Source: Callorhinchus milii
Lineage: Eukaryota
Direction: 5' to 3'
DNA: 64,000 nt
NCBI RefSeq assembly: GCF_018977255.1
Contig: NW_024704742.1
Span: 83,578,001 to 83,642,000 of the forward strand
Shown piece by piece: positions 6,937 through 41,323 of this stretch (positions are counted from its first letter, which is position 1; each line of letters starts with the position of its first letter). Under the pieces are notes generated by a model, which saw only the letters and a program-made list of their open reading frames with translations, searched no databases and was not told the DNA's origin. Position numbers and translations under genes: made by a program.

Positions 6937-7256
6937 GAATAATAATAATCCTTGCGTTTGATGTAACACCTTAGCATGTTGTCAAGACATCTCAAAGTGC
7001 TTCACAGGATGTACTGTAAAGAGACTGTGTTTTGTGGGTAAAACGCGGCAGCCAAATGCACACACAGTGTCCCACAAACACTCATGTATTGAGTGACCAT
7101 ATTATGATTATTATTATTTTTTCCTACTTACTGCTAGGTAAACAAAGGTGTGTGTGTGTGGAGTAAGGAAACTTGCCTAAGGTTTCGCCCTGCCTGGAAA
7201 TCAAACCCAGGTCCTCTCGCTTGCTAGGCGAGTGCGCTAACCACTATGCTACAAGG
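6937..7256 (-). mobile_element. tRNA-derived SINE, near full length
   Basis: (aat)n ccttgc tail to gctaaccactatgctac head. Confidence 0.85.
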
Positions 7257-8107
7257 CATAAAGTCTCAGAGCACTTCACACTGGTGGGGTTGGACACCAA
7301 GCAAGGAAGAAGTAGGAGGTGACCATAAGTGTGGTCTAAGAGGTAGCTTTTAAGCTGGAATAAAGACCAGAATAAAACCCTCCACTTTGGTTAGCAGAAT
7401 GTGAGGATCAGTGTATGAAAGGTGTTAGTTTACAACTTGAGATACCCGATCAGTAGAACACAAGGATCTATGATTAAGGTTGGCTTACAATTAGACTGCG
7501 CGAAGCTAACAAATTTTTCTACCGATTTAGTGTATCACCTAAAATCATCATTCTACTTCCTATCTCCTTTGTGCAAATTACATTATTAAAGTAACCAAAA
7601 GCTCTCTATTCATTTCAACACAAGCTAATATAATCAATCAGTTGGTTTATTTCTGATTCCACAAACTACCTTAAAGATCATGTTTGATACATAGTGCTTA
7701 TGCTATATTACTACATACTGTATTTCAGTTACATACTTTCAAGGACATTCTCATGAAACAAAGTTAATCTGCAGGTGATGCTACAGAGATACAAATAAGC
7801 AAGCCCAGAAAGTGGAGAGGAAACGCAGCTGAAGAACCAAGACCATCTGCTCTTAAAGAGGCTCCAGATGTATTACATGGTAGCTTTGGTGTCTTCCAAA
7901 TAAGGAAAGAGTTTATCTGCCCTACTCTTTGTTGTGGTTGACTTCCTGTGACAAGCTGGTACAGGTGTCTAACCAAATTAGTTTCCATCAACAAAGATGC
8001 ACTAAATAATTTCTTCCTCCATTAATTACCATTCACTGGATTTTCCCCTCCTGCCAGGTTCATTATGAATGGAAAATAATTCCACCCATTGCCTTCAAAC
8101 ATCTAAC

Positions 8108-8477
8108 ATCCTGTAGCTTAGTGGTTAGAGCACTCGCCTCGCAAGAGAGAGATCTGGGTTCTATTCCCAGAAGGGTGAAATGTTGTGCAAGTTTCCTTAC
8201 TCCGCTTGTCTCTGTTTACCAAGCAGTAAGTAGGAACTCAGTTGTTAGTCGATTGGTGGATCGCTTTTCCGGGGGTAATAATTTCTTTTTAAAAAAATTG
8301 GTCACTCAATCCACAACTGTTTGTGGGTCACTGCTGTGCACAATTGGCTACTGCATTTCGCCCACAAAATATACAGTCAATTCAGTACAATATACTCTGT
8401 GAAGAGCTTTTAAATGTCTTGAAGATGTGATGAAGCGCTACATCAAATGCAAGGATTATTATTATTATTATTATTAT
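8108..8477 (+). mobile_element. tRNA-derived SINE, long subfamily, full length
   Basis: A box tagcttagtgg, B-box-like gggttctattcc, central ctgtttaccaagcagtaagtagg segment, (att)n tail. Confidence 0.9.
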
Positions 8478-12278: not shown

Positions 12279-12905
12279 TGTCTGTGTGTGTCTGTGTGTG
12301 TGTGTCGGTGTGTGTGTGTCTGTGTGTGTGTGTGTGTGTGTCTGTGTGTGTGTGTGTGGTGGGGGGGGGCTGTGTGTGTATGTGTCTGTGTGTGTGTCTG
12401 TGTGTGTGTCTGTGTCTGTCTGTGTGTCTGTGTGTGTCTGTGTGTGTGTGTGTGTCTGTGTCTGTGTGTGTGTGTGTCTGTGTGTGTGTCTGTGTGTCTG
12501 TGTGTGTGTGTCTGTGTGTGTGTGTGTCTGTGTGTGTGTGTGTGGTGGGGGGGGCTGTGTGTGTATGTGTCTGTGTGTGTGTCTGTGTGTGTGTCTGTGT
12601 GTGTCTGTGTGTCTGTGTGTGTCTGTGTGTGTGTGTGTGTCTGTGTCTGTGTGTGTCTGTGTGTGTGTCTGTGTGTCTGTGTGTGTGTGTCTGTGTGTGT
12701 GTGTGTCTGTGTGTGTGTGTGTGGTGGGGGGGGGGGCTGTGTGTGTGGGTGTGTGTGTGTCTGTGTGTGTGTGTGTGGTGGGGGGGGGCTGTGTGTGTAT
12801 GTGTCTGTGTGTGTGTCTGTGTGTGTGTCTGTGTGTGTGTGTGTGTCTGTGTGTGTGTGTGGTGGGGGGGGGGCTGTGTGTGTGGGTGTGTGTGTGTGTG
12901 TGTGT
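12279..12905. repeat. (GT)n/(GTGTCT)n compound microsatellite with G-run interruptions
   Basis: Directly visible; higher-order subunit gtggtggggggggctgtgtgtgt recurs. Confidence 0.98.
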
Positions 12906-13365
12906 CCGATGTCCCACAGGGCTCCGCCAGATGGTATCACTGGGGATGGGATGGGAACTGTTCAGCAATTCTCTGTTCGTGGCCTTTTCCGTAAAAGAAA
13001 AGTTCACAAAGTTCACCTTCACAGTGACTTCGCCGCCGCGATATGACCGAGTGGTGCAAACCCCCCACTCCCCCCCCCCCCCCCGGGGGCAGGTCCCCCC
13101 CCCCCCCCGGGGGCAGGTCCGTCCCCCCCCCCGGGGGCAGGTCCGTCCCCGTCCCCCCCCCCCCGGGGGCAGGTCCGTCCCCCCCCCCCCGGGGGCAGGT
13201 GTCCCCCCCCTCCCCGGGGCAGGTCCCCCCCCCCCCCCGGGGGCAGGTCTGACCCTCCGCCCGGACAGTGCGGGCGAGTGGATCGCCAACATGTGGCGGA
13301 TCGGAAATAAGGCGAATGTCACCCCAACCGCATAGATATCACACACCACCGACACAGACACCCCT
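12905..13365. promoter_or_regulatory. CpG-rich unique sequence near the GLDC 5' end (candidate CpG-island/promoter region)
   Basis: Many retained CpGs (cgccgccgcg, ccgcccgg, tgcgggcgag) compared with the CpG-poor rest of the window; exon 2 is also CpG-rich. Confidence 0.4.
13068..13250. repeat. GC-rich minisatellite, about 7 copies of C(n)GGGGGCAGGTC(CGT)
   Basis: Repeated ggggcaggt cores separated by long C runs. Confidence 0.93.
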
Positions 13366-13404
13366 GGGGGGGGGGGGGGGGTCTGTCAGACATCACTGAC
13401 TTTG

Positions 13405-14491
13405 GAGGGGGGGGGACTGGTGTGTGGGGGGGTGGGTGTGTGTGTGGTGTGTGTGTGTGGGGGGGTGTAGTGTGTGTGTGTGGGGGTGTAGTGTGTGTGT
13501 GGGTGTGTGTGTAGTGTGGGTGGGTGTGTGTGTAGTGTGTGTGTGGGGGGTGTTGTGTGTGTGTGTGTGGGGTGTTGTGTGTGTGTGTGGGGTGTTGTGT
13601 GTGTGTGTGTGTGGGGGGGGGTGTAGTGTGTGTGTGTGTGGTGTAGTGTGTGTGTGGGTGTGTGTGTAGTGTGGGTGGGTGTGTGTGTAGTGTGTGTGTG
13701 GGGGGTGTTGTGTGTGTGTGTGTGGGGTGTTGTGTGTGTGTGTGGGGTGTTGTGTGTGTGTGTGTGTGTGTGGGGTTGTAGTGTGTGTGTGGGGTGTTGT
13801 GTGTGTGTGTGGGGGGGGGGGTGTAGTGTGTGTGTGGGGTGTTGTGTGTGTGTGTGGGGTGTGTGTAGTGTGTGTGTGGGGGTGTGTGTGTGTGTGGGGG
13901 GGGTGTAGTGTGTGTGTGTGGTGTGTAGTGTGTGTGTGTGGGGTGTTGTGTGTAGTGTGTGTGTGGGGTGTTGTGTGTGTAGTGTGGGGTGTTGTGTGTG
14001 TGTGTGGGGTGTTGTGTGTGTGGTGTGTGGTGTGTGGGGGTGTGTGTGTGTGGGGGGGGGGTGTAGTGTGTGTGTGTGGTGTGTAGTGTGTGTGTGTGGG
14101 GTGTTGTGTGTAGTGTGTGTGTGGGGTGTTGTGTGTGTGGTGTGTGGGTGTGTGTGTGTGTGTGTGGGGTGTAGTGTGTGTGTGTGGTGTGGTGTGTGGG
14201 GCGGTATAAGTGACCCTGACCATAGTGGTCGGCACAGTAAAGGTGTGTGTGAGATGACGGATGACCGGAGCCACAAGTGGCGGTGATTGAAGCACTGAAT
14301 GTGCTGCACTTTATGGTGTGTTGAGAGAGGGGCTCGTCCCCGCGTCAGGTGTGTGGGGGGTGTGGGGTATGTGTGTGGGGGTGTGTGGGGGTGTGTATGT
14401 GTGTGGTGTGTGTGGGGGGATGTGTGTGTGTATGTGTGTGTGGGTGTATGGGGTGTGTGTGAGTGTATGTGTGTGTGGGTGTGTGGGGGGT
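13405..14491. repeat. GT/G-rich microsatellite block (GTGTAGT / GGGGTGTTGT variants) with a unique island at about 14200-14348
   Basis: Directly visible. Confidence 0.96.
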
Positions 14492-14516
14492 NNNNNNNNN
14501 NNNNNNNNNNNNNNNN
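14492..14516. other. Assembly gap (25 N), likely hiding GLDC exon 1 and promoter
   Basis: Run of N between low-complexity blocks. No exon encoding the expected ...DFARRHIGP... N-terminal segment was found upstream on either strand. Confidence 0.75.
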
Positions 14517-15400
14517 TCTCTCCCCCCCCGTGCCTCTCTCCCCCCGTGCCTCTCTCCCCCCCGTGTCTCTCTCCCCCCGTGCCTCTCTCCCCCCCCGTGC
14601 CTCTCTCCCCCCCCCGTGCCTCTCTCCCCCCCGTGCTCTCTCCCCCCCGTGCTCTCTCCCCCCCCGTGCCTCTCTCCCCCCCGTCTCTCTCCCCCCGTGC
14701 CTCTCTCCGCCCCCCCGTGTCTCTCTCCGCCCCCCGTGTCTCTCCGCCCCCCCGTGTCTCTCTCCCCCCCCTGTGTCTCTCTCCCCCACCGTGTCTCTCC
14801 CCCCCCCCGTGTCTCTCCCCCCCCCCCGTGTCTCTCCCCCCCTCCCTGTGTGTCTCCCCCCTCCCCGTGTTCTCTCCCCCTCCCCGTGTCTCTCCCCCCT
14901 CCCTGTGTCTCTCCCCCTCCCTGTGTCTCTCCCACCTCCCTGTACCTCTCTCTCCCGTCCCTGTGTCCTCTCCCCTCCCTGTGTCTCTCCCCCCCCACCC
15001 TCCCCGTGTCTCTCCCCCCTCCCTGTGTCTCTCCCCCGTCCCTGTGTCTCTCCCACCTCCCTGTACCTCTCTCTCCCGTCCCTGTGTCTCTCTCCCCTCC
15101 CTGTGTCTCTCCCCCCCCCGTGTCTCTCTCCTCTCCCTGTGACTCTCTCCCCCCTCCCTGTGACTCTCCCCCTCCCGTGTCTCTCCCCCCCCCCCCATGT
15201 CTCTCTCCCGTCCCTGTGTCTCTCCCCCCTCCCTGTACCTCTCTCCCCCTCCCTGTGCCTCTCCACTGCCACTCCCTGTGCCTTTCCACCCCCCCTCCCT
15301 GTGTATCTCCACCCCCCCTCCCTGTGCCTCTCCCCCCCCTCGTGCCTCTCCCCCCCCTCCCTGTGCCTCTCCCCCCCCCCCCGTGCCTCTCCCCCCACCC
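14517..15400. repeat. Pyrimidine-rich minisatellite (CCCCCGTGCCTCTCT / CCCTGTGTCTCTCCCC)
   Basis: Directly visible; ends immediately before the exon 2 acceptor. Confidence 0.97.
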
Positions 15401-15412
15401 ACTGTGTGACAG

Positions 15413-15491
15413 AGTATTGATCAGCTTATTGACAACACGGTGCCGGCTCGGATCCGCCTGAGGCGGCCGCTGAGGATGGAGGACGCTGTGT
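15413..15491 (+). CDS. GLDC: GLDC exon 2 (SIDQLIDNTVPARIRLRRPLRMEDAV-C)
   Basis: gacag|AGT...GTGT|gtgagt; 79 nt; similar to human [26 protein letters not shown]. Confidence 0.95.
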
Positions 15492-15587
15492 GTGAGTAAA
15501 ATGTCCCATTGTTGTTGTTGTTTCTGATAGTTTGTCAACATGAAACACTTGATTCTAATGAAATGCGGGGACACACGTGACAACAGA

Positions 15588-15890
15588 ACCCCCCACCACC
15601 CACCCCCGAACCACCCACACCCCACGATCCCCCCCCACAGCCCGCACCATCCCCCCCATAGCCCGCACCAGCCCCCACCCTCCATGCAGCCCCCACCCCC
15701 CACGCAGCCCCCCCCACGCAGCCTCCCCCACGCAGCCCCCCACGCACCCCCCCACGCAGCCCCCCCCACGCAGCCCCCCCCCACGCAGCCCCCCCCATGC
15801 AGCCCCCCCCATGCAGCCACCCCCCCGCAGCACCCCCCACGCAGCCCCCCCACGCAGCACCCCCCCCCACCCCCTCTCCCTTCCCCCACC
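15588..15890. repeat. C-rich minisatellite (CCCCCCACGCAG)n
   Basis: Directly visible. Confidence 0.93.
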
Positions 15891-17929
15891 TCTGTGTGTC
15901 CATATTAGGTCGAGGTGCAGCCTGTCTGTAAGCCTGTGCGCAGCACACCATTGGAGGAAGGAGCAAACACACTAGACAAGACCCGCCGGCGTAGACAGGC
16001 AGACAAGACGACAACAACAACTTGCATTAAATATAGCGCCCTTCACGCAGGGTAGCGTCCCGGAGTGCTTAGACAAGTCGACCAGACAGACGAGCAAAGA
16101 GGTTGAAGAAGTTTATCTTCAACATATGCCCATTTCTCTCTCTCTCTTCGCTCACCTAGCTTCCCATCCCCCCTCATCCCCTTCCCCCTTGCTTTGTGCA
16201 TCTGGCTTGTATTGGGGTTTGTTACTCAAATTGCTGGCGCTGATTTTCAGATATGGGAGGGGTACTTGTCATGTCCTTGAAAGCACTCTGGGCCACTATC
16301 CTTCGTAAGGGGCTCTTTTTAAATGCAAGTTGTTTTTGTGTGGGTGTATTAAAAAAAAACCTTCCCTTTGGCCGTGGGGACTATGCTACTCGCAGCTGTC
16401 ATTGCCCAAGCTATAGTGTGCGCCTCCAGGCTCCTCACAGTTGCGACTGCGCAGGAAAGTTAGCTCTACACTATTGTGTCACAGTCATGGATTGTTATCA
16501 TCTGGGCTTGATGATGAGACAGCTCTGGCCACTGGGTCTGGTTTGTGCAGGAGAGTCGCAGCTGTGGTTTCAGTCAGTCATGCGGGATCTGTTCCCAGAG
16601 TAAAGTCTGCTTTAGAAAGTTGTGGAGCTTTAATAATCTAAAACTAAAAACACAGCTGATCCTTCGCCCACAATATATGCAGTCAATTCACTTTACAGTA
16701 TAATCTGTGAAGCGCTTTGAGATGTCGAAAAAGATGTGATAAGGCGCTATATCAAATGCAAGGATTATTATCCTAGACAAACTAAGCTCTAATCAGCCTT
16801 TCTATCTCACAAGAAATGTGAGAGCACTTTGATTGTTGCCAATCGCCTGCACAAGTGTACAGTACTGAAGTATTGTTGCTATATCTGCTCAGTGAGACAC
16901 TTCAAGTATCTTCACCCATGTGTTTATATGGGGTGCGCATCGTGGGGGGAGGGATGGGGATGGGGAGGATGGGTGGTATAAGGAAGCTTGTCTTTTAGCT
17001 TTTTTTAAAAATGCTATAATTCCATAGCAAATCATTGCGATGTCTAGCAAGCAGTGGCCGCTGATTTTCCAGCGACGACCACCCTATTGTTTGGGATTTG
17101 GTTTGAGTTAACAGGAGCTGAGTGGGAAGGATCGCTGCCCTCGGGCTGGCTGGTCCATCATCAGCAGTACATTGGAGTACTGCAAACCCATCTGCCTCAG
17201 AATCTAAACTATGAGGACTACCACAGACGTTATTGTTTCATTCCATTGGTAAACACATCACCTTGAATGCATCTTAGCCTAGAGAAGACTGCAGGATAGT
17301 CACTAGATCTTTCTTGGTTGGGAGAGGGGGGTGGGGAGAGGAGAGGTGCTATGTCTGCTGTATGCTGCTGTTATTGGTATTCAGCACGCAAATCTATAAT
17401 GATCTCTATGATTCACTAGAGTGTTTGATCTCAATGTTGGTGGTGAGCCAAGCCAACCTAACTATATGGCCCTCATCTGTGCTGAGATGGCTGGGTTGAC
17501 TGCAGTTAATCCTTAGCTGTGTGATAGCTGCACAAGTGACTTTTCAATCAATCTTTGATTAAGCCTTTCGATTTAAAATATTTTAACAGAATAACAACTC
17601 TGTTTACAAAGTACTAGAAGTGTTTGTAAAGGCACAAGATGGGTGTCACATTGTGTGGGCATCACGGTGGACATGCGATGATCCCAGAAAGGGAATTGTG
17701 AAGATGTTCCCTCAATTCTTGCTGTAATAATGCAACTCGTAAACTTTCAAAATCTAAAATCCAATCATTTCTACCCTTTTCCCTTTATTTCTGTAGGACA
17801 GAAAAACCTCACAGAAATACCGTAAATACTAAAATGGGTCATTTTTCTATTCACTAATTGATCAGATTTTGTGAGTTGAAGATGGAAATCTGAATCCTCA
17901 TTTAACATTTATTATCTTGTCCTCGAGGG

Positions 17930-18104
17930 CAGTGTTTCTCAACCTTTTTGATACCAGGGACCCATTCAGTTTCTTCTTATAAACATGGTGGGCAGCGAGT
18001 AAATGAGCCTGGAAAGACAAACAATCTAAAGGGATCACTGGAATGGACTGGCCGTGAGATAATCACAGATGGGCCCTGGTTCTCTTAACAGTCGAGAAAC
18101 ACTG
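17930..18104. mobile_element. hAT-Charlie-like MITE (175 bp)
   Basis: TIRs CAGTGTTTCTCAAC ... GTCGAGAAACACTG and subterminal accagggacccat/atgggccctggt; no intact 8-bp TSD. Confidence 0.7.
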
Positions 18105-18371
18105 CACTGCTGTAACTTTTCCTGAGTGAAGAATGTTGTAATAATTTACACTGTATTTGTATTTAGGTCAGTGGGATAAAGCTTAGACATCAAGTTCATG
18201 TCAGGATGGGGCAATAATCGTGTTGATTCATCTATTTGATCACAATCGATAGTAACATTTACAAGTAGCAAGTTTGGATTTTTCCGTAAACATGTGATTT
18301 TGGGGAGGAAAGAAAGGTTGTAGATACTATTGCAAGATTGAATTGGTAGTCATGATCTTACATCATATGTG

Positions 18372-18935
18372 GTGTCCGTCTGGCTGAGTCGGTATGGTAG
18401 CACTTTTTGCCTGAGTCACAAAGGTTCAAAGCCCCACATCTTTGAACTCAGATCGTTCAGGCTATCACTCCAATGCAATGGTGATGGTGTGCTGCAATGG
18501 GAAAGGTACCAGCCTTCTGATGAGACGTTAAACCAAAGTGTGGAGTCCTGTAGCTCAGTGGTTAGAGCACTCGCTTTGCAAGTGAGAGACCTGAGTTCAA
18601 TTCCAGGCACAGGGCGAAACCTTGGGCAAGTTTCCTTACTCCACACGCCTAATAATAATCCCCCCAAAAAACCAAAAACAATAATAAATTGGTCATCTTC
18701 AATCCATGACTGTTTGTGGGACATTGCTGTGCGCAATTGGCTGCCGTGTTTGCCCACAAATATACAGTCAATTCACTTTACAGTATATTCTGTGAAACGC
18801 TTTGGGACGTCTAGAAGACGTGAAAAGCGCTATATCAAATGCAAGGATTATTATTATTAAAGTCCTCTCTGCCTATTTAGGTGGACATTAAAGATCCCAA
18901 GGCACCTCTCAAAGCGAAGAGTTTCTCTGACATTG
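18372..18935 (+). mobile_element. Old SacSINE1/Deu-like SINE interrupted by a young SINE
   Basis: ...gatgagacgttaaaccaaagt | insertion | aaagtcctctctgcctatttaggtggacattaaagatccc continues the old consensus. Confidence 0.75.
18540..18858 (+). mobile_element. Young tRNA(Ala-like)-derived SINE, short subfamily, full length, 5-bp TSD AAAGT
   Basis: A box TAGCTCAGTGG, arm CTCGC-TTTGCAA-GTGAG, B box GAGTTCAATTC, L2-type tail plus (ATT)n. Confidence 0.93.
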
Positions 18936-20158
18936 AAGGCATTATATCAATATTCTTATTTTATGACACCCACCCCCATCAGAAAGGTAGGGATTGGCTT
19001 GCTGGGATTTTCACTAAGAGCAAAGCAAAGGGCAGTTAACACTTTGCTCTTCAAATGTCCCAAACCATTATTGATCGTGCATGAGTTTAGTGCCCAGTTG
19101 TTGCTCAAATAGATGCATGACATGGCACAGCCAGAAATATTGAACCAATTGTTGGAAATCTGAAGCTTTGATCAGCATACAAATCCTCTTCATGAATGAA
19201 CTATAGTAACATTACAAAGGTAGAATAGATCGACACATTGTGCTTCACATTGCTATGCTTCATGTTCCCTTTGTTATTAAATTACATTGAATATTTAGTA
19301 GACAAATTTCTTCAAACGTTTTTTTTAAGGGGAAAGAACTCCCTTTGTCTATTGTGGTCAGTGCTAGTAAATTACTGTTTCACTGCAGCTGGTTCACTGC
19401 ACTGAATGTCTTCTGTTCAATACCATTGGATTATGTAAAAATGAGGAGTGCCAAATGGAACTGACAAGGAAATTGTGGACAAGGGAGCACCAATGCTGCT
19501 TTGCTAATGTGAGGGTAGAACCCTGTGTAGTAATGCAGAGTCTGTGAAACTGGTTGAAGATTGGTAGCTAAATTTAGTTATGCTCCATGCACTTGCTTTA
19601 TCATGGTTGTTGTTAATTATCAGGTAGTGTATCAGTTAGAGCGCATTAGTTAGAGCACTCACTTTGCCTCGATTCCTCGGTGAGGCGAAATCTTAAGCAA
19701 GTTTCCCTACTTCACATGCTTCTGTTTACCTAGCAGTAACTAGGAACCTGGATGTTAAGTTGATTCACGGATCGTTTTCCGTTGGTGGTCATCAATCCAC
19801 AACTGTTTGTAGGACACTGCTGTGTGTAGTTGGCTGCCCATTTTGCCCACAAAGGCCATTTGGGCTCACTTCTCTGAGTGCCTAAGAGTGACTCTTGCTC
19901 GCAAGTAGAAGTGCCTCAGTAATCATCATGCCAAATCACCAGTAATTGGAAGTGGATTGTTTTGGAGCACACTTCACACAGTTGGCATAACACACTTGAA
20001 TGTTATTGGCAGGAATGAATATTTCATTAGCAATTCCTATTATGCAAATCATTCTGGACCTCAAGGGCATACACCCAGTTGCTACTGCGTTGAAATACTA
20101 CATGTTTTCATTACTTGGACTTGGATCACATTTATACACCTTGTAGTGATATTGTATA

Positions 20159-20890
20159 GAACCTTGGCGTCTTGGTTGACACTCAACTATCCTTTCTACC
20201 CCACATCCGTGCCATGACCCGCTCTGCCTTCCCCCACCTCCGCAACATCGTCTGGCTCCACCACTGTCTCATACCACAGACTGCTGAAACCTCATACACA
20301 CATTCATAACATCCAGGCTTGACTATGAAAACTCCTTGCTTGTTGGCCTCCCCAACTCCTTCCTCCATAGGCTGCAGATCATCCAGAACCCTACAGCCTG
20401 TGTCCTCTCCAGCACCAGGTTCTGTGACCTTATCTCCCCCATCCTAGCTTGACTCCATTGGCTTCCCATCACACCGAGGTTACAGTTCAAGATCCTGGTC
20501 CTCACCTTTAAAGCCCTTCATGGCCTTGCCTCTGTGACCTCCTAACCCCAACCATCCTGCCCTCTCCCTCCGCTCAACTGGGGTGTGCGGGCAAGGGGAG
20601 ACCGAAAGGTTGAAGAAATGAGTCTTAATGCAGATCTTGAAAGCAGGAGGGAGGGCAAGGTGGAGTTACTGCGGGATGGCATTCCAGAGAGTAGGGCAAA
20701 ATAGCTGAAATCCCCCAACAATGGTTGGGTGGAACAGGCGGGAGACTTAAAGAGTTGGTATTTGCCAAGCAGATGGGGTAGCTCGGATATTGGGGTCAGT
20801 GGAGGTTGTAGAGGGAAGGTGGCGGAAACGTCCATTAAAAAGTGAGGACAAGAATTTTAAATTTGAATAGGAGACATGTGAGGATGGGAG
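20159..20890. mobile_element. Two adjacent L2 fragments (+ 20159-20545, - about 20590-20890)
   Basis: Plus part nearly identical to 42640-42970; minus part resembles the L2 3' region. Confidence 0.75.
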
Positions 20891-21741
20891 TAATGAGATG
20901 ACGGAACCTGTTACCAGTGAACAGTGTTGAGGACCAGAAGCAGGTGTCAGTGGTGCAAACTTTAACTGCATTTTGGTTGACTACCTGGATACCTAATCAT
21001 TCATTTATACCTGATTTTTATCATTTGTACCAACTCAGGACTTTTCCCTATTAAACTTCCAACAAATCAGCTGTGACATTAGCAAGGTTATGTTTGTACC
21101 AGTGTAATTAGAAGTATAACTGCAGATTTGAAACTTTTATGCTCGTCCATCTGATTTAATTTCATAATTATGGTGCCCATTATTTGAAATACAGTATATA
21201 TCCTCTACTGAAACAAATACCCCTTTATGTTGTACAATTTACATCTGCCTGAATCACAAGGCAGACAGAATCTAAAATGAATAAGATCAGCAAAAAAAGG
21301 ACGGTAAACTATAAATAAATAATTTAGTGTGCAAAAGCAGCAGTTAACTAATGTCAGCAGTTTGCAACACGCAATGAGTGAAACGAAAATTAAAAAAAGA
21401 AGAAACTAAAAGTAAAAGGAATGCATTAGAATATACAGCACAGAAACAGGCCATTTGTCCCAACTGGTCCATGATGGTGTTTATGCTCCACATGAGCCTC
21501 CTTCTGCCCTTCCTCAACTAAGCCTTCAAGCAAAAATAAAGCAAAAAGAAAGCAAAAGATGGACAGAGTCAGAGCATCAGGTCAGAGCAGCAGTCAGTAA
21601 TTTCACACATAAAGCATTTCAAGTCTATTTCAAGTATAGTCATGCTGTAGCTTCTTATTTTTCAATCTGGTTATTTGGGTGGTAACACAGAGTTCAAAGT
21701 GTGTTCTCTCTGCAGTTTCAACATCCCAGGGTGGCTCCAGA

Positions 21742-22131
21742 TAACAATAATGATCCTTGCATTTGATATAGCACCTTATTACATCGTTCAGACATCGCAA
21801 AGTGTTTCACAGGATATACTGAAAAGTGGTGTGATTGTATTTGAGGGCAAATGGAGCAGCCAGAGTGAGTGACCAATTTTATTGGGGGTTATTGACCAGG
21901 CACTGAGATAAACTCCCTTCTGTTTTCAAATAGTGCCATGGGATCTTTCACATCTGCCTGAAGAGGCAGACAAGACTTCAGCTTAACATTTTATCCGAAG
22001 GATGCCAGCTCCAACAATGCTGTGTTGCCCCTGTACTGCATTTGAGTACTAGACTCGACAGTGTTAAAGTCCCAAGGTGGGGTTTGAACCTACAACCTTC
22101 TGACAGATAGGCAACTGAGTCAGGCTGACAT
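21742..22131 (-). mobile_element. Old SacSINE1/Deu-like SINE
   Basis: atagtgccatgggatctttcacatc...tttgaacctacaaccttctgac...caggctgaca. Confidence 0.75.
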
Positions 22132-22468
22132 CAGCATAGACCAGGATCATAGATGGAAAATATACAGTCAATTCACTTTACAGTCTATTCTGTGAAGCAC
22201 GTTGGGACGTCTAGAAGACGTGAAAAGCGCTATATCAAATGCAAGGATTATTATTATTTTGGTGTGCATGGCTTCACATAAACTACACTTAACTGATGCC
22301 TTCATTCGCTACACCATCGAGAAGCTCTGAATATTGAAATTCGTTGGCTAGGAAATTCAAATAATAGATGACTAGCAGTCAGTCACGAGGCAGCAGTTCA
22401 GCCTGAGGCTGATTAACAAATTACAGTGCAAAGCTTGAAGAATTTGTGAGCATCAGCAGAATCCAAGG

Positions 22469-22891
22469 CGCAAAATACTGGGGGAGGGGGAAGGTGAGTT
22501 GTTATGGTCTGAAACTGAGCACCATATGTTTTTTTCAGACCATAACAGCTCACCTTCCCCCCTCCCCCTCTTCTGGGACCATTACCACATCTGGGTCTGG
22601 GTCCCAGACACACCTTTTCACTCTCTGGTCTGCCTATTTTGTTGCAATTCCTCACCCCTTTGTTTTGCATTATTAACATCCCTTTAACCCATCATTCCCT
22701 GTTCTCTACCCCATTTGCTCCTTTGTCTTCCTTGTCCTGCTTCCCCCCTGTCTGTTAGTCCTTAAAAACCTCTCCATCCCAACATGCCCCAGTTCTGATG
22801 AAGGGTCATGGACCCGAAACGTTGACTCACTTTCCATTCTCCATAGATGCTGCCTGATCTGCTGAGTGTTCCCAGTGATTTCTGTTTTTGT
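22469..22891 (+). mobile_element. Penelope-like element terminal fragment with 5' inversion; 14-bp TSD AGCAGAATCCAAGG
   Basis: TSD at 22455-22468 and 22892-22905; ctgatgaagggtc..gacccgaaacgt..gatgctgcctgatctgctgag matches the recalled pseudo-LTR of shark Penelope-like elements. Confidence 0.8.
22791..22827 (+). ncRNA. Minimal type I hammerhead ribozyme motif (Penelope-type)
   Basis: AGUU-CUGAUGA-A-GGGUC-AUG-GACCC-GAA-ACGU-U-GACU: core boxes, 5-bp stem II, palindromic ACGU stem III, 4-bp stem I. Confidence 0.7.
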
Positions 22892-25345
22892 AGCAGAATC
22901 CAAGGATTAGTTGATCGTTAAAGTTGCAGTATATCCTGATTTAATGAAGGCTTGTTATTTCAACATGATAATTGGGAAAAAATGATAATAAATGTGCAGC
23001 AAACAGAGTAAAATGATTCTGGTTATCACACACTGCACAACTTTAATTTTAACTGTAAATGAATTGTTTGGAAATACACAGACCCAAAACTCTTACATCA
23101 TTTTTCATGCCTCAGTGTATGAGCTTAAAGTGATTATATGGGGCTTGAGTTAACAGTAACTGTAAAAGAGACTTAAACCATTCTTTGATTCTGTAATAAG
23201 GATTATCATAGGCGTACAAAATGGGTCATGTAAACTGCCTCTTGCCACACTATCCAAAAGTAAGTGGCTGCAGTCATTTTGGAGGATGGTCGGGATTGAA
23301 TGTGCTGAGAGAGAGGTTAATGACCAGCGACAACCCAACTATAACAGCTTTCTGGGAGCTTCTCGTGTTTCTGGCCTGCACGTGGGACTTTTGCTAATAA
23401 TAATAGTAATCCCTGCATTTTATATAGTCACTTATCACGTCATTGAGACGTCTCAAAGCTCTTCACAGAATATACTCTCGTGGATTGACTGTGTATTTTG
23501 TGGGCAAAACCTCCTAGAGTGATCCTTTCAGAGTGGAATGTATACACCTTATTTTCCTTCACTGTAGACTTTATACACAGCATTAGGAGAAGCCCAGCTC
23601 AGCATTAAATGGGAAATTTATGGTTTTGTTGAGCATATAAGCGCTTTGAGACATCTAGAAGACGTGAAAAGCGTTATATCAAATGCAAGGATTATTATTA
23701 TTATATATAGACCTGCTTAATCTGGCTCCAAAGGGGGAGAGTCCCGGGAACAGTCTCTAAGTGAGAATCTCTCACTTCAAGTGAAGAAATTGCTTAATAA
23801 AGATGGTATTTTCTTCCATTCTAGAGGGAATGTTGAACAGAAAGCATTGCCTCTGGACCTTAGCCGAGGAATGAGAATGTCCTTCAGAGCAGATTGAAAA
23901 GCCTGTTGACAACATTTTGTTTATTATTTTTTGCATAATCATTACAGCACAGGCGTAACCAGGCTTTCTTGATTTCTCATCTATTCAGCTACTCTTTCTA
24001 ACAACCTGAACTTCAAGTTTTGGTCCTTAAAGGATATAATTTTTTCAATATATTTTAGAGAACAGACGCATTATTCCCATCACTCGTGTGGTAGAACTCA
24101 CATAAAGTGTTCTTAAACTATGGTTTGAGGAGAGAATCCTGCTAAAATATAATTTCCAGGAATCTACAATCTACCTGCTGAAGTTTGGAGGGGGCGGGGA
24201 GGGAGGGGGGAGGGAGATTACATTGTATGTATTAGAGCAAGAGTCAAATGATATGTTAATAGCTTCTTTTTGCTTTTTTTTATAAGATCACTGAACTTTG
24301 CGCTTTGTTTAGTCAGACCCTCTTGTCAAATTGCATTGTGTAACAGACTGGTGTGGAAACAGAAACAAGGTCATTGGCATCTGTTTATTCAGCATGAGGA
24401 AGTTGCCAGATTCAGTTCACTGAGATTACCTAAATATACTGAGTGGTATTAGACTTTTGTTCGACCGAATACTCCAGAGAAGGCTCACATCAAAAAAAAG
24501 GGCTTGTTCCTGCAGCATTCCTTATTTTTTGGCATGTAATAAATCATCACCTTTTTAGTGACACAAGTCTAATTGTTCCACTAATCCAACTGCAGAAGGT
24601 GTTCGTTCCCTGGACGATTATTTTGGTCTGTGTTGCTCTGAAATGACATATCATAGCAAGCCTACATGCACTTCTGTTTGTGAGAATGGTAATAATTTTA
24701 GAAACAAAGTCACTTGGGTGGTAAATTGATCAAAAGGTGATACTGGCACCACTTGGTAATGAAGCTTAGTACATCTTTCAGAGTACTGCAAAGCTCTGAT
24801 CAGCATGTGAACTGGGAATGGGTGTGTCTTTCACATTATGTAGGACAGGAGTTGGATTATCAACTAATCCTCATTGTATCTGACAACTGCTTAACTTCTC
24901 TTCTAAGGAAGCTCCTTAGCTACCTTTATTTTTAAATGTCTCTGGTGGTTCATACTGTTCCTTATATCCTCCAGGGTGCTCTATATCGATCCGAGGGAAG
25001 TATTGATAACAGTGAGGCTGAAGTCTTTTCCTGTTTGAGTTTATTGTAAGGAGTTAAATTGGTTATAAATGGGTGCACTGTGGACCCCATAAAAAGTACA
25101 TGTGCTGAAGCCAGCTTTTGCACCCAAACGGCCGACATCTGGGTTGTCCAGCTGCCACCAATGTCACTTCCTGCTTTGAGCATGTGCAGAGACCAAGAAG
25201 TGACATCAGCAGCGATCTGATGTCCTGGATGTGGACCAATGTTCTTTTAACACGGGGACAGGCTGGTGCACATGAACGAGCAGCGTGTCCGCTTAAGCAG
25301 TGAACCTGGCTATTGTGTTTCGTTATAGCATGGGGCTGGGACTTT

Positions 25346-25699
25346 ATAATAATAATCCTTGCATTTGATATAGCATCTTTTCACGTCTTCTAGACGTCTC
25401 AAAACGCTTCACAGAATATACTGTAAAGTGAATTGACTGTGTATTTTTGTGGGCAAACGCGGCAGCGCACAGCAGTGTCCCACAAACAGTCGTGGATTGA
25501 GTGACCAAATTTTTTTTTTGTGTGAGGGATTATTACCTCCGGAAAAGCAATCCGAAAATTGACTTACAACTGGGTTCCTACTTAGCGCTAGGTGAACAGA
25601 GGCGTGTGGAGTAAGGAAACTTGCCCAACGCTTCACCCTGCTGGGAATTGAACCCAGGATCTCTCGATTGTGAGGCGAGGGCTCTAACCACAAAGCTAC
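25346..25699 (-). mobile_element. tRNA-derived SINE, long subfamily, full length
   Basis: Reverse complement of the 8108 copy. Confidence 0.9.
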
Positions 25700-26517
25700 T
25701 AAGCATTAAGGGTGGGGTGGGATAGATCTCATTGATTTAGAGCATGACTCCTCTGCAGTTGGCTCTTGTGGAGGAGCTGACACCAGCAAAGACTCCAGTG
25801 GATGAATGGCCTCCTTTTGTGTTATAATTTCAATGATTGAGTTAGATTGTTTTTGTTGTGAATTTTTTTCCTCCCAAACTTTTTTTTAAACAAAGCAGTG
25901 GGTCTATTATGTGCTATGTGTAAATACAGCTTTGTTGTTTGTCATATTAAAATGCATATCGTGATTCTCAGCCAAAGGACGGCACCTCCAACTATATTGG
26001 AATCTGAGCCTGAACCATAACTTCACTTCCAGCTCTTATTGGAAAATAGGTTGTGGCAATACTTGGTCATGCATTCTGGTTATATATAAACTGTTTATCC
26101 TGGCCAGTAGAATTCCACTGTAAAGTTAATCCAAAGTTCATGATATATTCAGCTTGACTCAATTTGCTTATCATGCATTTAGGTTTTGGCATGAGCATAT
26201 CTCAACATTAGGTTATTGCACTGTAGTGTCAACTGCATGTAACATATCACATTTTACATTCAAAAATGGGACTGAAACCCGGGTTCAGACGATCTGCAAT
26301 TGTGCATCAAATGCAATTTTTTGCAGAGCTGATAGAAATGGCATTTTATACGCAAAACATTGCAATGTGAGCTAGAGGCTCTTAAAACTGTTTCAGCTTT
26401 AGGATTACTTTTCAGATGCCTATGCATCTTACCCAACATGTCTCAGTTGGTTGTACTCTTGTTTCTGAGTCAAGAGGGTTGTCAACACAAACCTTTTATC
26501 AGGGCTTTGAGATAATA

Positions 26518-27154
26518 GCCTCTGTTTACCTAGCAGTAAGTAGTAACCAGGTTGTTAGGCAATTGGCGAATTGCTTTTCTGAGGGTAATAATCCCTTCAA
26601 AAATAAATAAATACAATCACAACAAAATTACATTTGTATAGTGCCTTTCACGTCGGGAAGACATCCCAAGTTGCTGGACAGACAGAGTTACGGACCCGAG
26701 CTGAGTGTCAGGGTGGGGTGGGGGGAATCAGGGAGATCAAAAGCACAGTCGAAGAGGTGGGTCTGAAGGTGGCGAGAGAGAGAGCGAGATGGCGGGATTG
26801 CGGGATGGAGTTCCAGAGGGGTGGGTGCAGAGTGGCGGAAGGCCCTCCCACTGATAGTGGGGCGAGCAAGGCAGGGCACGTAAAACAGGCCAAAGCCTGC
26901 TGAGCGGAGGGAGGGAACAGGGTGGTAGGGGTTAGGAGATTGGAGAGGTAGGGAGGAGCAAGCCCATGGAGGGAATAATAATAATTTGGTCACTCAATCC
27001 ACGACTGTTTGTGGGACACTGCTGTGCGCAATTCGCTGCCGTGTTTCGCCCACAAAATATACAATCAATTCACTTTACAATATATACTGTAAAGGGCTTT
27101 GAGATGTCTCGAAGACGTGATAAAGTGCTTTATCAAATGCGAGAACTGTTATTA
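26518..27154. mobile_element. Plus-strand SINE split by a minus-strand L2 3' fragment (about 26620-26972)
   Basis: SINE middle at 26518-26606 resumes at 26976; L2 fragment (RPTISGRAFRHSAPT) lies between. Confidence 0.75.
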
Positions 27155-27854
27155 TAAACAACCATGAGGTAAATCCCAATTAATTTGGAGACCAGTAAGT
27201 CCACTGAGAGAAACTCCCATGTCTTACAGAATTATTAGTAATTATTTGTTTTAACAATAATTATTAATGATTTGATTAATATAATCAAATGGGATTGTTA
27301 ATGTTCACCTGGATGATAGAAGGGCCTCGGTTTATAATCCCATTCAAAAGACAGCGCCTCTTCCAATGCAATACTGCACTGGATTGCTAGCTAGACGAAG
27401 AGCCGCGGACTCAAAATAGGACTTGAATCAAGGCAGCACTGCCATTTACATGTCCACAATGACACCAAATTGAACGAAAAAATATATAATGCAGGAAATT
27501 TTATTTTGTTTCATCGAATTTCCTTTTTTTTACTCCTCCTTCTCAACATTTGTGAGTCATGTGATTGATTTGAATGTTGAAGCTGGTATAGCCATTGCTG
27601 CTTGTATTTGACTACAGTGTGCCAGCTGACCTCTGAAAAGGTTAAGTATTTGACTTTTTTCCAGTGTCTTACTTTGGAACCTCCCCATCACCCTGCAACT
27701 GTTTATATCAGGTGGGAGGATCTGACTAGTCCCTGGACTGTGTCATCGCTACTACAACATATAGTGTTACTATTTTCCTCTTATAACCTTTTGTAGCCTA
27801 TGAATCCACCTACACTACATGGACAGGGCTTTAGAGACTTTACTCAATCCTCCC

Positions 27855-28516
27855 AACAATAACTTGTATTTATATAGCGCCCCTCATGCGGAGTAGAGTC
27901 CCGGAGCACTTCACAGTGGCAGACTCTGACAACGAGCCAGAGGAGAGTGAGGGATGAGGTGACTCTAAGCACGATCAAAAAGGAAGGTGCCTGTGTTTGT
28001 CACCTCCCGCCTGGATTACTCAAACGCACTCCTCGCCGGTCTCCCCAGCTCCACTATTCAAAATATCCAGCTCACTCAGAACTCTGCCACCGCATACTGA
28101 CCCGGACCAAACTCCGTACCCCCATCTCACCAGGTCTGGCCAGGCTCCACTGGTTCCCCATCATCAAATAGATCAACTTCAAGATCGTCACACTCGTGTT
28201 CAAATCCCTTCACTCTCTGGCACCTCCTAACCTCTCCGACCTTCTCACTCCCCAATCCACCACCTGGTGCCTCCGCTCGACTGACACCGGCCTCCTGCTC
28301 ATCCCTCGCATCCTCCGCCCCACCATCGGAGGTTGCGCTTTCAGCCACTACGCCCCGAAACTCTGGAACACTCTCCCTCAATCCCTCCGTCTTGCCCCCT
28401 TTTTCAAGTTCCACCAGAAAACCTTCCTCTTCAACCGTGCTTACAGTCACCTTCCCCCCCCTTTGAGACGCTATCCGACATGGAGGGCGCTCTATAAGTG
28501 CAAGTTGTTGTTGTTG
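27855..28516. mobile_element. Back-to-back L2 3' ends (- 27855-27990; + 27991-28516)
   Basis: Minus-strand tail aacttgtatttatatagcgccc; plus-strand LARLHWFP...FSHYAPKLWNTLP and (TTG)n tail. Confidence 0.82.
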
Positions 28517-29544
28517 TATACAGAATGGCCTGCTCCCATTCCTGTTACATGTTTCCTACCCTAGCTTCCCTTGGTGGGCAAGCATTCAGGCATTCTATTC
28601 CCTACTTCTTGGAACTCCATCTCAGAGATCCTCTGCCTCGCCCCTCACCTATTAAGACAGCCGTAAGACAATTTTACGACCACTGTTGGTCACCTTCACC
28701 CTCCTCCCCAGTTCAGACTTCCAGTGAGCCATGTGAAGTGCTTTGGGATGTCCTTCTGACATGAAAGGCGTTATGCAAATGTAAACCGTGGTTGTTGATT
28801 TAAGATGTTGCTGCGAGCACAAGCTTCCAATTCTTATTTTGTTGCTTCTGAAGATTATGAACAATTCAATTCTGACTCAGTGAATCAAACTTTGACTTAG
28901 TGGCTCAAAAAATGGCTCACATGGAAGGGATAAAATGCTATAAATTTGATGTGGTGAGGCACCATAACATTTCAAGTTTTTTCATTTACTACCCCTATGG
29001 CGAGCACTCAACAATAGATTTATTTTTCTGGGAAAGGGATTGGGTGAGAATTGACAACAATCAATTTTCATGCAATGAGATCCCATAAACAGCATTTAAT
29101 GTGTACTTTTCCATCTCAGAGAAATTAACACAACCAACGAATGTATTATCACCCTCCTTTGCATTTGCCGGAGTAATGATAATTGCTGTTTACCAGGTTA
29201 ATAAGAGGAAATCAGTATATGATTTCTTTCAAAATAGCACCATGTGATCTTTAGCATGCCACTAAACACACCTCTGTTAACATTTCATCTGAAAGATGGT
29301 AATTTCTACTTTGCAGTGTTCACCTAGCATTGCGCTGGAGTGTCCGCCTGGACTCTGAGCTCAAAGCCTCAACCTGGGATTTGAATTTATAGTCTTCTGG
29401 ATCAAAGATGAGATTGCTACCAACTGAGGAAGGCTTCATATTATAAAGTCACAAATTGCAAACTTGTAACCAATGTGATTTTGACAATTTTTCAATTAGG
29501 TTTATGACAAGAACAACAACAACAACTTGCATTTATAAGTGAAT

Positions 29545-29770
29545 GATCTGGGGAATTGTTGGCCAGGACACTGGGAAAAACTCCCTTTTTTGAACACTCC
29601 CAATGGGATCTTTAACATCCACCTGAACAGGCCGTGGGCTCAGCCGAAAGACAGCTCACCCAGCACTGCACAGGAGTGTCAAACTGGACTGTGAGTCCCA
29701 CTGTGGACCTTGAACTCAGAACCTTCTGACTCAGAAGCAAGCATGCTACCAACTGAGCCAGGCTGACACT
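29545..29770 (-). mobile_element. Old SacSINE1/Deu-like SINE, 5' half
   Basis: ttggccaggacactgggaaaaactcc...accttctgactcagaagcaagcatgctaccaactgagccaggctgac. Confidence 0.75.
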
Positions 29771-29900
29771 CATATTAACAAATTTAGTTATTTGGGATTG
29801 TTGCATTACTCATTCACAAAGTATATTTTCACAATTTGTTTGAAACTTTATTCCCATTACGTTTGAGATAAGGACATCTATTCCTTTGTTTTAACCTCAG

Positions 29901-30036
29901 GTGAAAATGAAATCCTCAGTGTTCTACACAAGATTTCAAGCAAGAATAAAATCTGGAGATCCTACATTGGAATGGGCTATTACAACTGCTCGGTGCCACA
30001 ATCAATTCTCCGCAACCTGCTAGAAAATTCAGGATG
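29901..30036 (+). CDS. GLDC: GLDC exon 3 ([45 protein letters not shown])
   Basis: ctcag|GT...GGATG|gtaatg; 136 nt; in frame with exons 2 and 4. Confidence 0.97.
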
Positions 30037-32535
30037 GTAATGCTTTCTTAGTTTAAATGCACTTCCCTAAATGCTTTAATAATGAAGGAGAGGCAGCTCG
30101 AAGCTGCAGAGGATTGGTGCGGAGGTTGTTATGCAATAGTGTGCTCGGGTGCACATTTGTACAAGTGGTATTCTTGCAAACTGCCAAAGAATGAACTCTG
30201 GGGCATAAGAATAATAATCCTTGCATTTGATATCGTGCCTTACCATGTCGTTGAGATGTCAGCCCGAGCTCCCAGTTGGCTCAGTGAAGCGCTTTAAGAT
30301 GTCCACTTGACAAGAAAGGCACTATATAAATGTGCAGTTGTTGCTGTTGTTGTGGTAGATTCGGATGGACATTTTTCAAAGGCAGCAGATTGACATATCA
30401 AGACATTATGTATTGAGGAATCAAGGTACTATGGTGATTCCAGGCCCTGAATCAAGGCCAAGAACTTGCTGTAGCCATTGGTTTCAAACAGGAGCTGAGA
30501 GTATATATTTTCCTGTGGTCTGTTGGGCCTTTCAGAGTTTCAGGTGAGAGCTTGTCAGTTCAGTTGGAAGAAACAAATCTCTGGGGCCACACAACAATAA
30601 CAAATTACATCTGTATAGTGCCTTTCACGTCGGGAGGACGTTCCGGGGTGTTTGGCACTCACCGCCCCCTCCACCTAAGACATAGAATGGGGGGTCGGCT
30701 GCATTCAATGAAGAAAAAAATATTGGTCATTCAATCCACGACTGTTTGTGGGACCTGATGTGAGCAATTGGCTGCCGAGTTTCGGCCTCAAAACACACAG
30801 TCATTACACTTTACAGTATATTCCGTGAAGCGCTTTGAGACGTCTCGAAGATGTGATAAGGCGCTATATAAATTAAATCTTGTTGTTGTTGTATATCAAA
30901 TGCAAGGATTATTATTATTATTAATACTATGGGGCCAGAGGCAAAGTGATACTGAGAATTAAAGTATGTAATTTGAATTCAGACTTTTCACAAAAGAACA
31001 TGGTTATACAACACCACCAAAGAGGTAAAAAGGACATGTTTATAGTACAAAAACATCCAAAGTTACATTTAATAGTGGTCTTCTTGCAGGATAGCATCTT
31101 GGAATGCTGTTGGAATGCCGAGCAAAGGGGAGGGGGAAGGTTGGAGGTAATTATTGGCACAGTATAAGAAATAGGTCTTAAGGTGGGATTTAAGATGGGG
31201 AGCCAGTAGAGCCTGGTTTGGGGTGATAGGTTTGTAGAGTTTGGTTCATACAGCCTGGGAGTGGTGATAATTGTAGAATGGAGGGTATTATATAAGTGCG
31301 AGTTATTGTTGTTGTATGTGGTATTTACACCTCAGATCTACAGGGCATTCATCTTGCTTAAAAGCAAACGAGTGTTATGAGGGGAACCTTATAATGGGGT
31401 TCTACTGTATTAACCTTTCAGTCTTCAAAAACAAAAATGTTCTGGTGTGGCTTTGCTGTTGCAGTACTCGCAGGGTTAAATGAACCCTCCAGGATCGGAC
31501 CAGGCCTTGCAATGGCCCCATCATTAAAACATTCCTTTAATTAATATTTTGAAACTGTTCAAGCGAGTGAGAGAAACGTGAAGTACACCACACAGTGTAC
31601 AATGTACAAAAAGAGACGCTGTTTTTGTTCCCACCTCCTGTTGCCCAAACTTAACAGGGACCAGAATTTTCAGCCTTGTTTCCCTCTGTTTACTCAGCTC
31701 TGCTTTTAAAATGCCCCGAGTTCTTCTTTAAAATGTCAAATATAATTGCCACAAAATTGTTAATAGATGAGAGGAACGGGTTACACAAGAACATAGTACA
31801 TCATATGTTCTATGTAATGATCTAAGAACTGAATAGTGGATAACAAATTATCTAGGGCTATTAAAGAGATTCTTATTGCAACAACCCAGTAAGGTTACCT
31901 AGTAACCGTCTTAAATTACACCAGTGTGATGTGAAAGTAGAAGGCAAACTTTAGAAAAGAAGGTATAAAGAAATTTTGTTGTTGGAATAAATTTACATAA
32001 ATTGGTTGCTGGGACAAAAAATGGAATTTGGTGATGTATTTTTCACCTCATTGACACTGCCCTTTTTATTGCTAGTATATTCATGTCATTGACATAGACA
32101 ACCTGCTCGCATTGGCACTGTTTATGCTTTTGAGCGAAGGTGGAAAAAGGAAAAAACATTTAGGGACGCTCTCGATTATAATAATAATAATCCTTGCATT
32201 ATTGACTGAAGTTGTTATCAACAAGATTAACTTAACTAGTGGAAGGGAACTCCAGGGCGTTAGATTATAAGTTAATAAGTTATTGTAACCCTGTATAACT
32301 CATTGGTACAGCCACATTTTAAATATTGTGGCCAATTTTAGGTGTTTCCCCTTCAATAGGGCATTGGTGTATTGCAGCTAGGAATGAAAAATAAATCCAG
32401 GACTGAATTTGGATGAAACCCTTGCTCAATTAAACTTGATTTTCATTGGGAAAAGAATGAGGTGAGGGGAAGGTGTGATCCATGTATTTAAAATAGTGCA
32501 CCCAAACTGTAGAAAGTAAATGTAATATAATATAT

Positions 32536-34549: not shown

Positions 34550-34950
34550 GCACAGTTGGACTTTGTGAAAGGAAAGTGACAGGACTCCACTACACTGCAC
34601 ACTTTGAATGTGTAGTTTTGTTTGTTCCCATCAGTGCTTTATAGTGGTGGTGGGTTTGCTGTTCACTGAAGCAATAAAACTTTTTTTAGAAACGGTGAAG
34701 AAAATCACTTCAATGTGTCAATCGTACTGCATTTCATTCAGCACGGTTTTAAAATCTACAAATGGAAAACAGACCGGAGGTGGGGAAGGGGGAAACAATC
34801 CCCATCACTGCTTCTCATCGCCATGCTTGGTACATATGTGTGTGATCGAGATTATCTGGGCCACAGAACACTTTACACAAGTAACCAGCAAATGCTTTGA
34901 TAGACACTGTGCTTCTCTAGGGCAGCATTGGACTTAGCAAACTTTTCTAG
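34550..34950. repeat. Direct repeat copy A (partner 36698-37099)
   Basis: About 400 bp with roughly a dozen differences by eye; offset 2148. Confidence 0.95.
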
Positions 34951-35691
34951 ACCACCTAGAGAATGCTCTGGTGTCTTTACAGTAAGACCTGCATAAGTCC
35001 GATCTGTATAAATCGTATAATCACTTACAACTGCCCAAGTCCCATTCAAGAGTTTATAATCTATATATTCTACGCAAGTTTGAGATAACTCATATTTTGC
35101 ACAAATCATATTAAATGTATTGTCCCAACTGATACGACTTACTTGAGGTTCATGAGGTTTACTGTACTCTCATCTACAAGCTCAGACAAGAAGTGGAAGA
35201 ACTGCCCCATTGCATGTAGATGAGACTGCAAGTTATTGAGACTTGTAACTACACTCATAGGAATGTAATGCTGTACTCCTATATGCTTTCCCTCCCAGCC
35301 CCTGTACGTTTCCATTGGCAAACTTTTCTAGACCACATAGAGAATGCTCTGCTGTCTTTACAGTAAAACCTGCATAAGTCAGATCTGTATAAATCGTATA
35401 ATCGCTTACACGTGCCCAAGTCCCATTCAAGAGTTTATAATCTATATATTCTACGCAAGTTTGAGATAACTCATATTTTGCACAAATCATATTAAATGTA
35501 TTGTCCCAACTGATATGACTTACTTGAGTTTCATGAGGTTTACTGTATTCTCATCTACAAGCTCAGACAAGAAGTGGAAGAACTGCCCCATTGCATGTAG
35601 ATGAGACTGCAAGTTTTTGAGACTTGCATTTACACTCATAGGAATGTAATGTGTCTCTCCTATATGCTTTCTCTCCCTGTACGGTTCCATT
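34937..35691. repeat. Tandem duplication, 381-bp unit x2 (34937-35317, 35318-35691)
   Basis: Both units begin gcaaacttttctagaccac; paired ORFs in the track are offset by 381. Confidence 0.95.
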
Positions 35692-40996: not shown

Positions 40997-41323
40997 TAAT
41001 AATAATAATAATCCTTGCATTTGATATAGCGCTTTTCACGTCGGGAGGACGTCCCAAAGCGCTTCACAGAACACACTGTAAAGTGAATTGACTGTATATT
41101 TGTGGGCGAACGTGGCAGCCAATTGCGCACAGCAATGTCCCACAAACAGTCATATGGATTGAAAATGACCAATTTTTTTATTGGTTTTGGTTTTGGAGGG
41201 ATTATTATTAGGCTCTGTGTGGAGTAAGGAAACTTGCCCAAGGTTTCGCCCTCTGCCTGGAATTGAACTCAGGTCTCTCACTTGCAAAGCGAGTGCTCTA
41301 ACCACTGAGCTACAGGACTCCAC
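40997..41323 (-). mobile_element. Young tRNA-derived SINE, short subfamily, full length
   Basis: Head differs from the 18540 copy by one base over about 105 nt. Confidence 0.93.

Follow-up and report, generated by a model that had tools for sequence, protein, structure and literature searches.

The hammerhead motif found at positions 22791-22827 of the window, i.e. the whole 64,000-nucleotide stretch of Callorhinchus milii DNA analyzed here, is with high confidence the minimal hammerhead of a Penelope-like element (PLE), contained within a 5'-truncated insertion bearing target-site duplications (TSDs) on both sides in intron 2 of GLDC, where it is likely an inactive passenger. A previous inspection of the letters alone, referred to as the sequence-only reading, had described the motif, assigned it to Penelope-type elements and proposed that it could act on GLDC. 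The observation and the family are correct; the proposed effect on GLDC is unsupported.

The letters, core boxes, stems and position on the + strand are exactly those given by the sequence-only reading:

22791-22827, + strand: minimal type I hammerhead motif, from sequence and descriptor; predicted cut 3' of 22823
22791-22794, + strand: 5' strand of helix I, AGTT (sequence)
22795-22801, + strand: core box CTGATGA (sequence)
22802, + strand: extra A after the core box (sequence)
22803-22807 and 22811-22815, + strand: helix II, GGGTC/GACCC, 5 bp with the 3-nt loop ATG
22816-22819, + strand: core box GAAA, followed by CG at 22820-22821 and TT at 22822-22823 (sequence)
22819-22822, + strand: palindromic ACGU in place of helix III, with a 2-nt loop
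22824-22827, + strand: 3' strand of helix I, GACT; helix I is the 4-bp AGUU/GACU

A GUU triplet stands at the predicted cut, in agreement with the U16.1-H17 rule, and the motif fits the minimal hammerhead ribozyme (min-HHR) by its CUGANGA and GAAA boxes, its G10.1-C11.1 pair, the extra base after A9 and the short helix I. A relaxed minimal-hammerhead descriptor produced two matches in 144 kb, corresponding to the GLDC intron 2 motif and to an antisense copy of the family located past the window end, and one match in 60 shuffled 64-kb windows. Because matches are so rare in shuffled windows, the motif is not a chance occurrence. A check by covariance models or by a type I descriptor had been recommended, and the two gave different answers: no match to the Rfam hammerhead models was obtained, either in the whole window at the gathering score or in 22500-23100 at E<=10, and the motif was found by our own type I descriptor. 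The Rfam hammerhead models likely expect a full helix III.

GLDC lies on the + strand, and one of its exons is 100% identical to proteins labelled as Callorhinchus milii. Its exons were mapped by tblastn from exon 2 through the last one, which falls about 25 kb past the window end; the two exons next to the motif, identified by homology (tblastn and splice sites), are:

15413-15491, + strand: GLDC exon 2
29901-30036, + strand: GLDC exon 3

Intron 2 therefore spans 15492-29900, and the motif sits in the middle of it, with the splice sites about 7.3 kb and 7.1 kb away. The sense-strand location in GLDC intron 2, already proposed from the letters, is borne out by tblastn, splice sites and protein identity. 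Neither the window nor the 30 kb upstream yielded exon 1, and the exons are therefore numbered by homology with full-length fish and mammal proteins; exon 1 may sit in an assembly gap near 14.5 kb. Within the window, at about 12279-15900, exon 2 is surrounded by long TG and C-rich tandem repeats, adjoining a gap of Ns. Two of the listed proteins (P0003 and P0006) begin at exon 3 or close to it and have N-termini derived from intron sequence, likely as annotation artefacts.

The motif is contained within a truncated Penelope-like insertion of 423 bp (22469-22891), whose parts and borders are as follows:

22455-22468, + strand: left target-site duplication, 14 bp, identical to 22892-22905
22469-22514, - strand: inverted end piece (self-BLAST), made of the last 12 nt of the family tail and an inverted copy of 22533-22568
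22515-22532, no strand: junction filler of 18 nt between the inverted and direct pieces, unmatched among family copies
22533-22545, + strand: last codons and stop (F-R-P-stop) of the RT/GIY-YIG ORF, the 5' truncation point of the direct copy
22546-22891, + strand: 3' non-coding part, or pseudo-LTR (pLTR), ending without tail and matching 29 of 29 other loci
22789-22795, + strand: initiator-like CCAGTTC, site of the 5'-end pile-up described below, with a likely transcription start at A22791/G22792
22892-22905, + strand: right target-site duplication, 14 bp, a perfect match to the left one

The inverted piece is an internally deleted second copy, and its reverse complement ends in the tail found in other copies. 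Upstream of F-R-P-stop, other copies extend into GLNIDFNNFRP-stop and VYCIRC..CGLLYIGET, and the last 132 nt of the pLTR share 93-95% identity with all of the 29 other loci. The traits of EN+ PLEs are all present: 5' truncation, inverted end copy, one-sided tail and TSD. Such a structure presumably formed when the endonuclease of the element nicked the intron with a 14-nt stagger and two rounds of reverse transcription began, one from the end of the pLTR and one from that of the tail, producing the direct and the inverted truncated copies.

Searching the 992-Mb genome with 136 bases as query yielded 4,139 first-look candidates; the best of the scored matches were 92-95% identical. From exact genome-wide matches to the 20-mer just 3' of the motif, the family amounts to at least 5,216 copies, while a tight motif pattern was matched exactly at least 421 times; the reversed control produced no match in either case. 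In the 5' direction, longer copies include a GIY-YIG domain, then a CX4CXXC linker and the RT. For the parent protein, 134 homologues were obtained at E<=1e-20; shark and ray proteins rank best, and many of the homologues carry PF00078, PF26215 or PF01541. The RT/GIY-YIG assignment is based on these homologues and on the visible motifs; a Pfam search on three decayed ORF pieces returned no family. The linker joining RT to EN in one copy (L034) reads CQHRRCNTC, which fits the CX2-5CXXC pattern of Neptune, common to Nematis, and points to an element of Neptune/Nematis type. The pLTR, the tail and the ORF start follow one another in this order in L366 and L376; an intact full-length element, with its ORF between two pLTRs, was not found among the loci examined, and the translated ORF copies are all broken. 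The ORF upstream and the anatomy of the insertion thus support the Penelope-type minimal hammerhead proposed by the sequence-only reading, which had missed that the motif belongs to a TSD-flanked insertion of a family of over 5,000 copies. Three ray gene models (P0122, P0126 and P0199), which bear the names of the host genes DIPK1C, chitinase domain protein 1 and nicotinamide riboside kinase 1, contain sequence of the element protein and represent either exonized PLEs or mis-annotations.

The ability of the GLDC copy to cut its own RNA was evaluated by folding predictions. Since a 2-base loop cannot close helix III in the monomer, a partner copy is needed. Only one other family copy (L061) is present in the 144 kb around GLDC: about 100 bp long, it maps at window-equivalent positions 67423-67521 on the - strand, in a later GLDC intron, starts near the edge of helix I and contains a descriptor-positive hammerhead. 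As this copy is antisense, there is no dimer partner in cis. With one sense and one antisense copy, the sense orientation of the insertion is a coin toss. In equilibrium folding, which ignores co-transcriptional folding and chaperones, the probability of the hammerhead shape was 0.07 for the bare 37 nt and at most 0.0007 with flanks. Monomers of 37, 81 and 132 nt showed no folding aptitude beyond that of their shuffles (z = -1.0, 0.8 and 0.0, respectively). The energy of the ACGU self-duplex is -1.7 kcal/mol, versus -3.5 for the competing AACGUU duplex. The monomer is devoid of helix III, a cis partner is absent and the fold is disfavoured by the flanks; for these reasons, cleavage of the GLDC pre-mRNA at the expected site is predicted to be unlikely.

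Published experiments, as described in the parts of the sources covered here, can be set beside these predictions. Single min-HHRs did not cleave and dimers cleaved little (PMC4209133), and the same was reported in PMC6765202. The hammerhead of an Anolis PLE was active only in the presence of the PLE protein, and the substrate was mainly RNA that had not been cut; mutation of the hammerhead left insertion unaffected, and no RNA-seq reads ended at the cut site (PMC11167929). The co-transcriptional or trans cleavage of intron 2, suggested by the sequence-only reading, is therefore not supported: the gene offers no same-strand partner, the fold is disfavoured in its context, the copies are not under selection, and single motifs do not cleave alone in the published accounts (PMC4209133, PMC11167929). 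Of that interpretation, the half with better support is its caveat that a lone copy may lack activity. In order to cut, the hammerhead would need a second copy, providing an ACGU:ACGU helix III, and probably the protein of the element; no such partner being present in the GLDC pre-mRNA, the motif would be spliced out uncut.

The decay of the motif was analyzed in 56 copies, picked on the ORF or flank and not on the motif, and leaving out copies truncated inside it. The motif is intact in 11 of them, versus 11.9 +/- 2.8 in a neutral simulation, and CpG changes are found at 48/168 catalytic sites and 56/212 free sites. On the family average, genomic copies decay neutrally at catalytic bases, and the presence of an intact copy in GLDC is therefore unremarkable. 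The divergence of the window copy from the family majority is average, at 6.4% where the median is 5.6%; within the motif it departs from the majority at two tolerant positions, in both cases by a CpG transition. All its catalytic bases and both helices are intact, as in only about one in five copies, and this counts against its being a passenger.

Two subfamilies, seen among L235-L324 and L385-L444, are distinguished by paired changes, G10.1-C11.1 with G1.1 (36/66) and A10.1-U11.1 with A1.1 (13/66). The second features compensatory A10.1-U11.1 and U2.1-A1.1 pairs, and the co-change of helices I and II is one event, not many. Among metagenome contigs, selected on the core and helix II only, a helix I of at least 3 bp is formed by 86 of 107 matches; counted by flank type, it is formed by 18 of 33, versus 6.9 in shuffles. 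The hammerhead structure is meaningful in master elements, not in genomic copies; it would be under selection in the former and not in the GLDC copy. By chance, many introns of the C. milii genome should contain an intact copy in sense orientation.

Exact matches to the 20-mer just 5' of the motif number 561 genome-wide, versus 5,216 for the one on its 3' side. The 5' ends were determined for 92 distinct copies, all from the first 14 Mb of contig 1, obtained from the first 100 listed places (93 were retrieved, 1 being outside the set). Almost half of the ends (41/92) fall at 22787-22795, 12 of them at G22792, and the pile-up is observed in both subfamilies (22/49 and 19/43 copies). The stopping rate is 0.127 per base in this interval, versus 0.003-0.016 elsewhere. 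Genome-wide, a non-family base precedes A22791 in 477 copies and G22792 in 770, some of which are point changes in longer copies.

The Inr consensus is YYANWYY. Judging from the sequence, the likeliest cause of the pile-up is an RNA beginning at the equivalents of 22791-22792, because of the initiator-like CCAGTTC, the internal promoters carried by PLE pLTRs (PMC2377424) and the extra G before A22791. This G is found in 50 of 100 among the matches listed, versus a single-base background of 28% (p = 4e-6) and 39% before AG (p = 0.017); of 30 copies inspected, 5 are long copies with a point change. No excess of G is seen before G22792 (35 of 100 among the matches listed versus 31%, p = 0.2), and a cap-derived G before A22791 is only suggestive. 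On the whole, transcription starting at helix I, with uncleaved RNAs serving as templates, is rated as reasonably probable.

Other sources of the pile-up were considered. A cleaved template, leaving 5' ends at the cut site, was rejected, as only 2/92 ends map at 22821-22827, and a lariat-branch stop near 22765 was rejected likewise, with 1/92 ends there. There is no support for ends created by splicing, be it to a shared upstream exon or to donors of the host, upstream sequence being heterogeneous in 60 loci; in the 6/60 loci with a TSD, 0-3 nt separate it from the start of the element. Drosophila Penelope has an intron whose end falls at the structurally equivalent point (PMC4209133), and the pile-up site of the C. 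milii family is also acceptor-like; the copied RNAs would be mostly uncleaved under either the start-site or the splicing interpretation. In five loci (L400, L402, L404, L405 and L427), a short repeat of the GACGA(AG) of the motif directly precedes the element start, which suggests template jumps at the RNA 5' end. No account of this pile-up was found in the literature searched.

Three further ways in which the insertion could matter to GLDC were weighed. The motif could be a latent ribozyme, its intronic copy being cut in trans by short pLTR RNAs or with the element protein, so as to tune GLDC mRNA. The core is intact and lies on the transcribed strand, the tight-motif copies, at least 421, are a possible source of partner RNA, protein-assisted cleavage is known for an Anolis PLE (PMC11167929), and intronic ribozymes with proposed host roles exist (PMC6155905; also CPEB3). 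However, a trans helix would be only 4 bp long, with -1.7 kcal/mol, the 6-nt palindrome AACGUU (-3.5) would tie up A14 and the base at the cut in pairs, the protein may be absent, since all translated ORF copies are broken, and the copies show no selection on the motif. Splicing, moreover, need not be stopped by a cut that lies about 7 kb away from each splice site. We regard a latent ribozyme as unlikely, and as quite improbable the wider scheme in which the pLTR starts capped RNAs at helix I and the resulting stub RNAs partner intact intronic copies, cutting host pre-mRNAs including that of GLDC.

Signals other than the ribozyme could also be involved, either a sense internal promoter at 22791 or a cryptic acceptor leading to a stop-containing pseudo-exon. 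The pile-up of 5' ends, the initiator-like CCAGTTC and the internal promoters held by PLE pLTRs (PMC2377424) agree with the former; a pyrimidine tract with CAG at 22790-22792 agrees with the latter, and the frame from exon 2 through this acceptor reaches a TGA at 22855-22857. However, such signals are short and common, and CpG decay points to methylation; an effect of this kind appears improbable. Amniote intronic hammerheads (RECK and others) are of canonical build. That the motif is a domesticated host hammerhead like the conserved amniote RECK type is hardly credible: it is intronic, on the sense strand and intact in its core, but its build is minimal, with no monomeric helix III and no Rfam hammerhead match, and the insertion that contains it, bounded by TSDs, is not better conserved than its sibling copies. 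An inactive passenger is the interpretation we retain.

The motif can be compared with several known systems, as described in the parts of the cited works covered here. The min-HHRs of metazoan PLE pLTRs (PMC4209133; Cervera and De la Pena 2014) are likewise type I, with a 4-bp helix I, an extra nucleotide at 9/10.1, G10.1-C11.1 and a palindromic 15.2-16.2, and are mostly lone genomic copies from truncated PLEs. Helix II has 5 bp here, versus 7-8 bp in the Schistosoma families (PMC4209133), and cartilaginous fish are not mentioned in the main-text parts of that paper covered. The EN+ PLEs Neptune and Nematis (Craig et al. 2021, PMC8557442) similarly feature an RT followed by a C-terminal GIY-YIG, a CX4CXXC linker, 5' truncation, an inverted copy at the 5' end and a one-sided tail of 30-40 bp; unlike them, the GLDC copy is a 423-bp stub retaining the last ORF codons only. 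Poseidon PAc of Anolis (Frangieh et al. 2024, PMC11167929) also has a tail between two RT start sites and a pLTR hammerhead, and uses uncleaved RNA as template, as the 5'-end distribution suggests here; its ORF starts within the hammerhead, whereas here the ORF-like region follows the tail, about 250 nt downstream of the motif start (L376). Amniote intronic hammerheads are also intronic, type I and on the sense strand, but they are conserved across species (PMC6155905), whereas here a minimal motif is found in a repeat copy that decays neutrally. Non-LTR retrozymes (bioRxiv 10.64898/2026.07.22.740005) similarly contain PLE-derived type I vertebrate hammerheads, including one chondrichthyan case; they are tandem arrays with at least two hammerheads, whereas the present copy is single and dispersed. 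A retrozyme was accordingly rejected for this site, a single copy with no tandem array of hammerhead units.

The GLDC feature itself matters little, being a typical Penelope stub. If the 5' ends mark a start at helix I, with few of them at the cut, the genome argues that PLE RNAs are copied uncleaved; this, if true, would give in vivo support to an in vitro result and bear on the purpose that PLE hammerheads serve. Were host introns shown to be cleaved in trans, a retroelement would have a new way of controlling host genes.

Other features were recorded in the window. GLDC intron 3 contains, in sense orientation, a match to the SNORA2/SNORA34 family of H/ACA snoRNAs (30441-30578, + strand; 87 bits, cut-off 70); its H box reads AGAGTA, and an ACA stands three bases before the end. 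In mammals the family presumably sits in another host gene and, because of this difference, the match may represent a host-gene switch or a retrocopy. In the same intron, a 381-bp unit is present as a tandem duplicate at 34937-35677, with 95% identity. Eight tRNA-like matches (7185-7258, 8107-8178, 18549-18609, 25633-25705, 41253-41315, 47316-47373, 50170-50241 and 63930-63992) are probably the heads of a tRNA-derived SINE.
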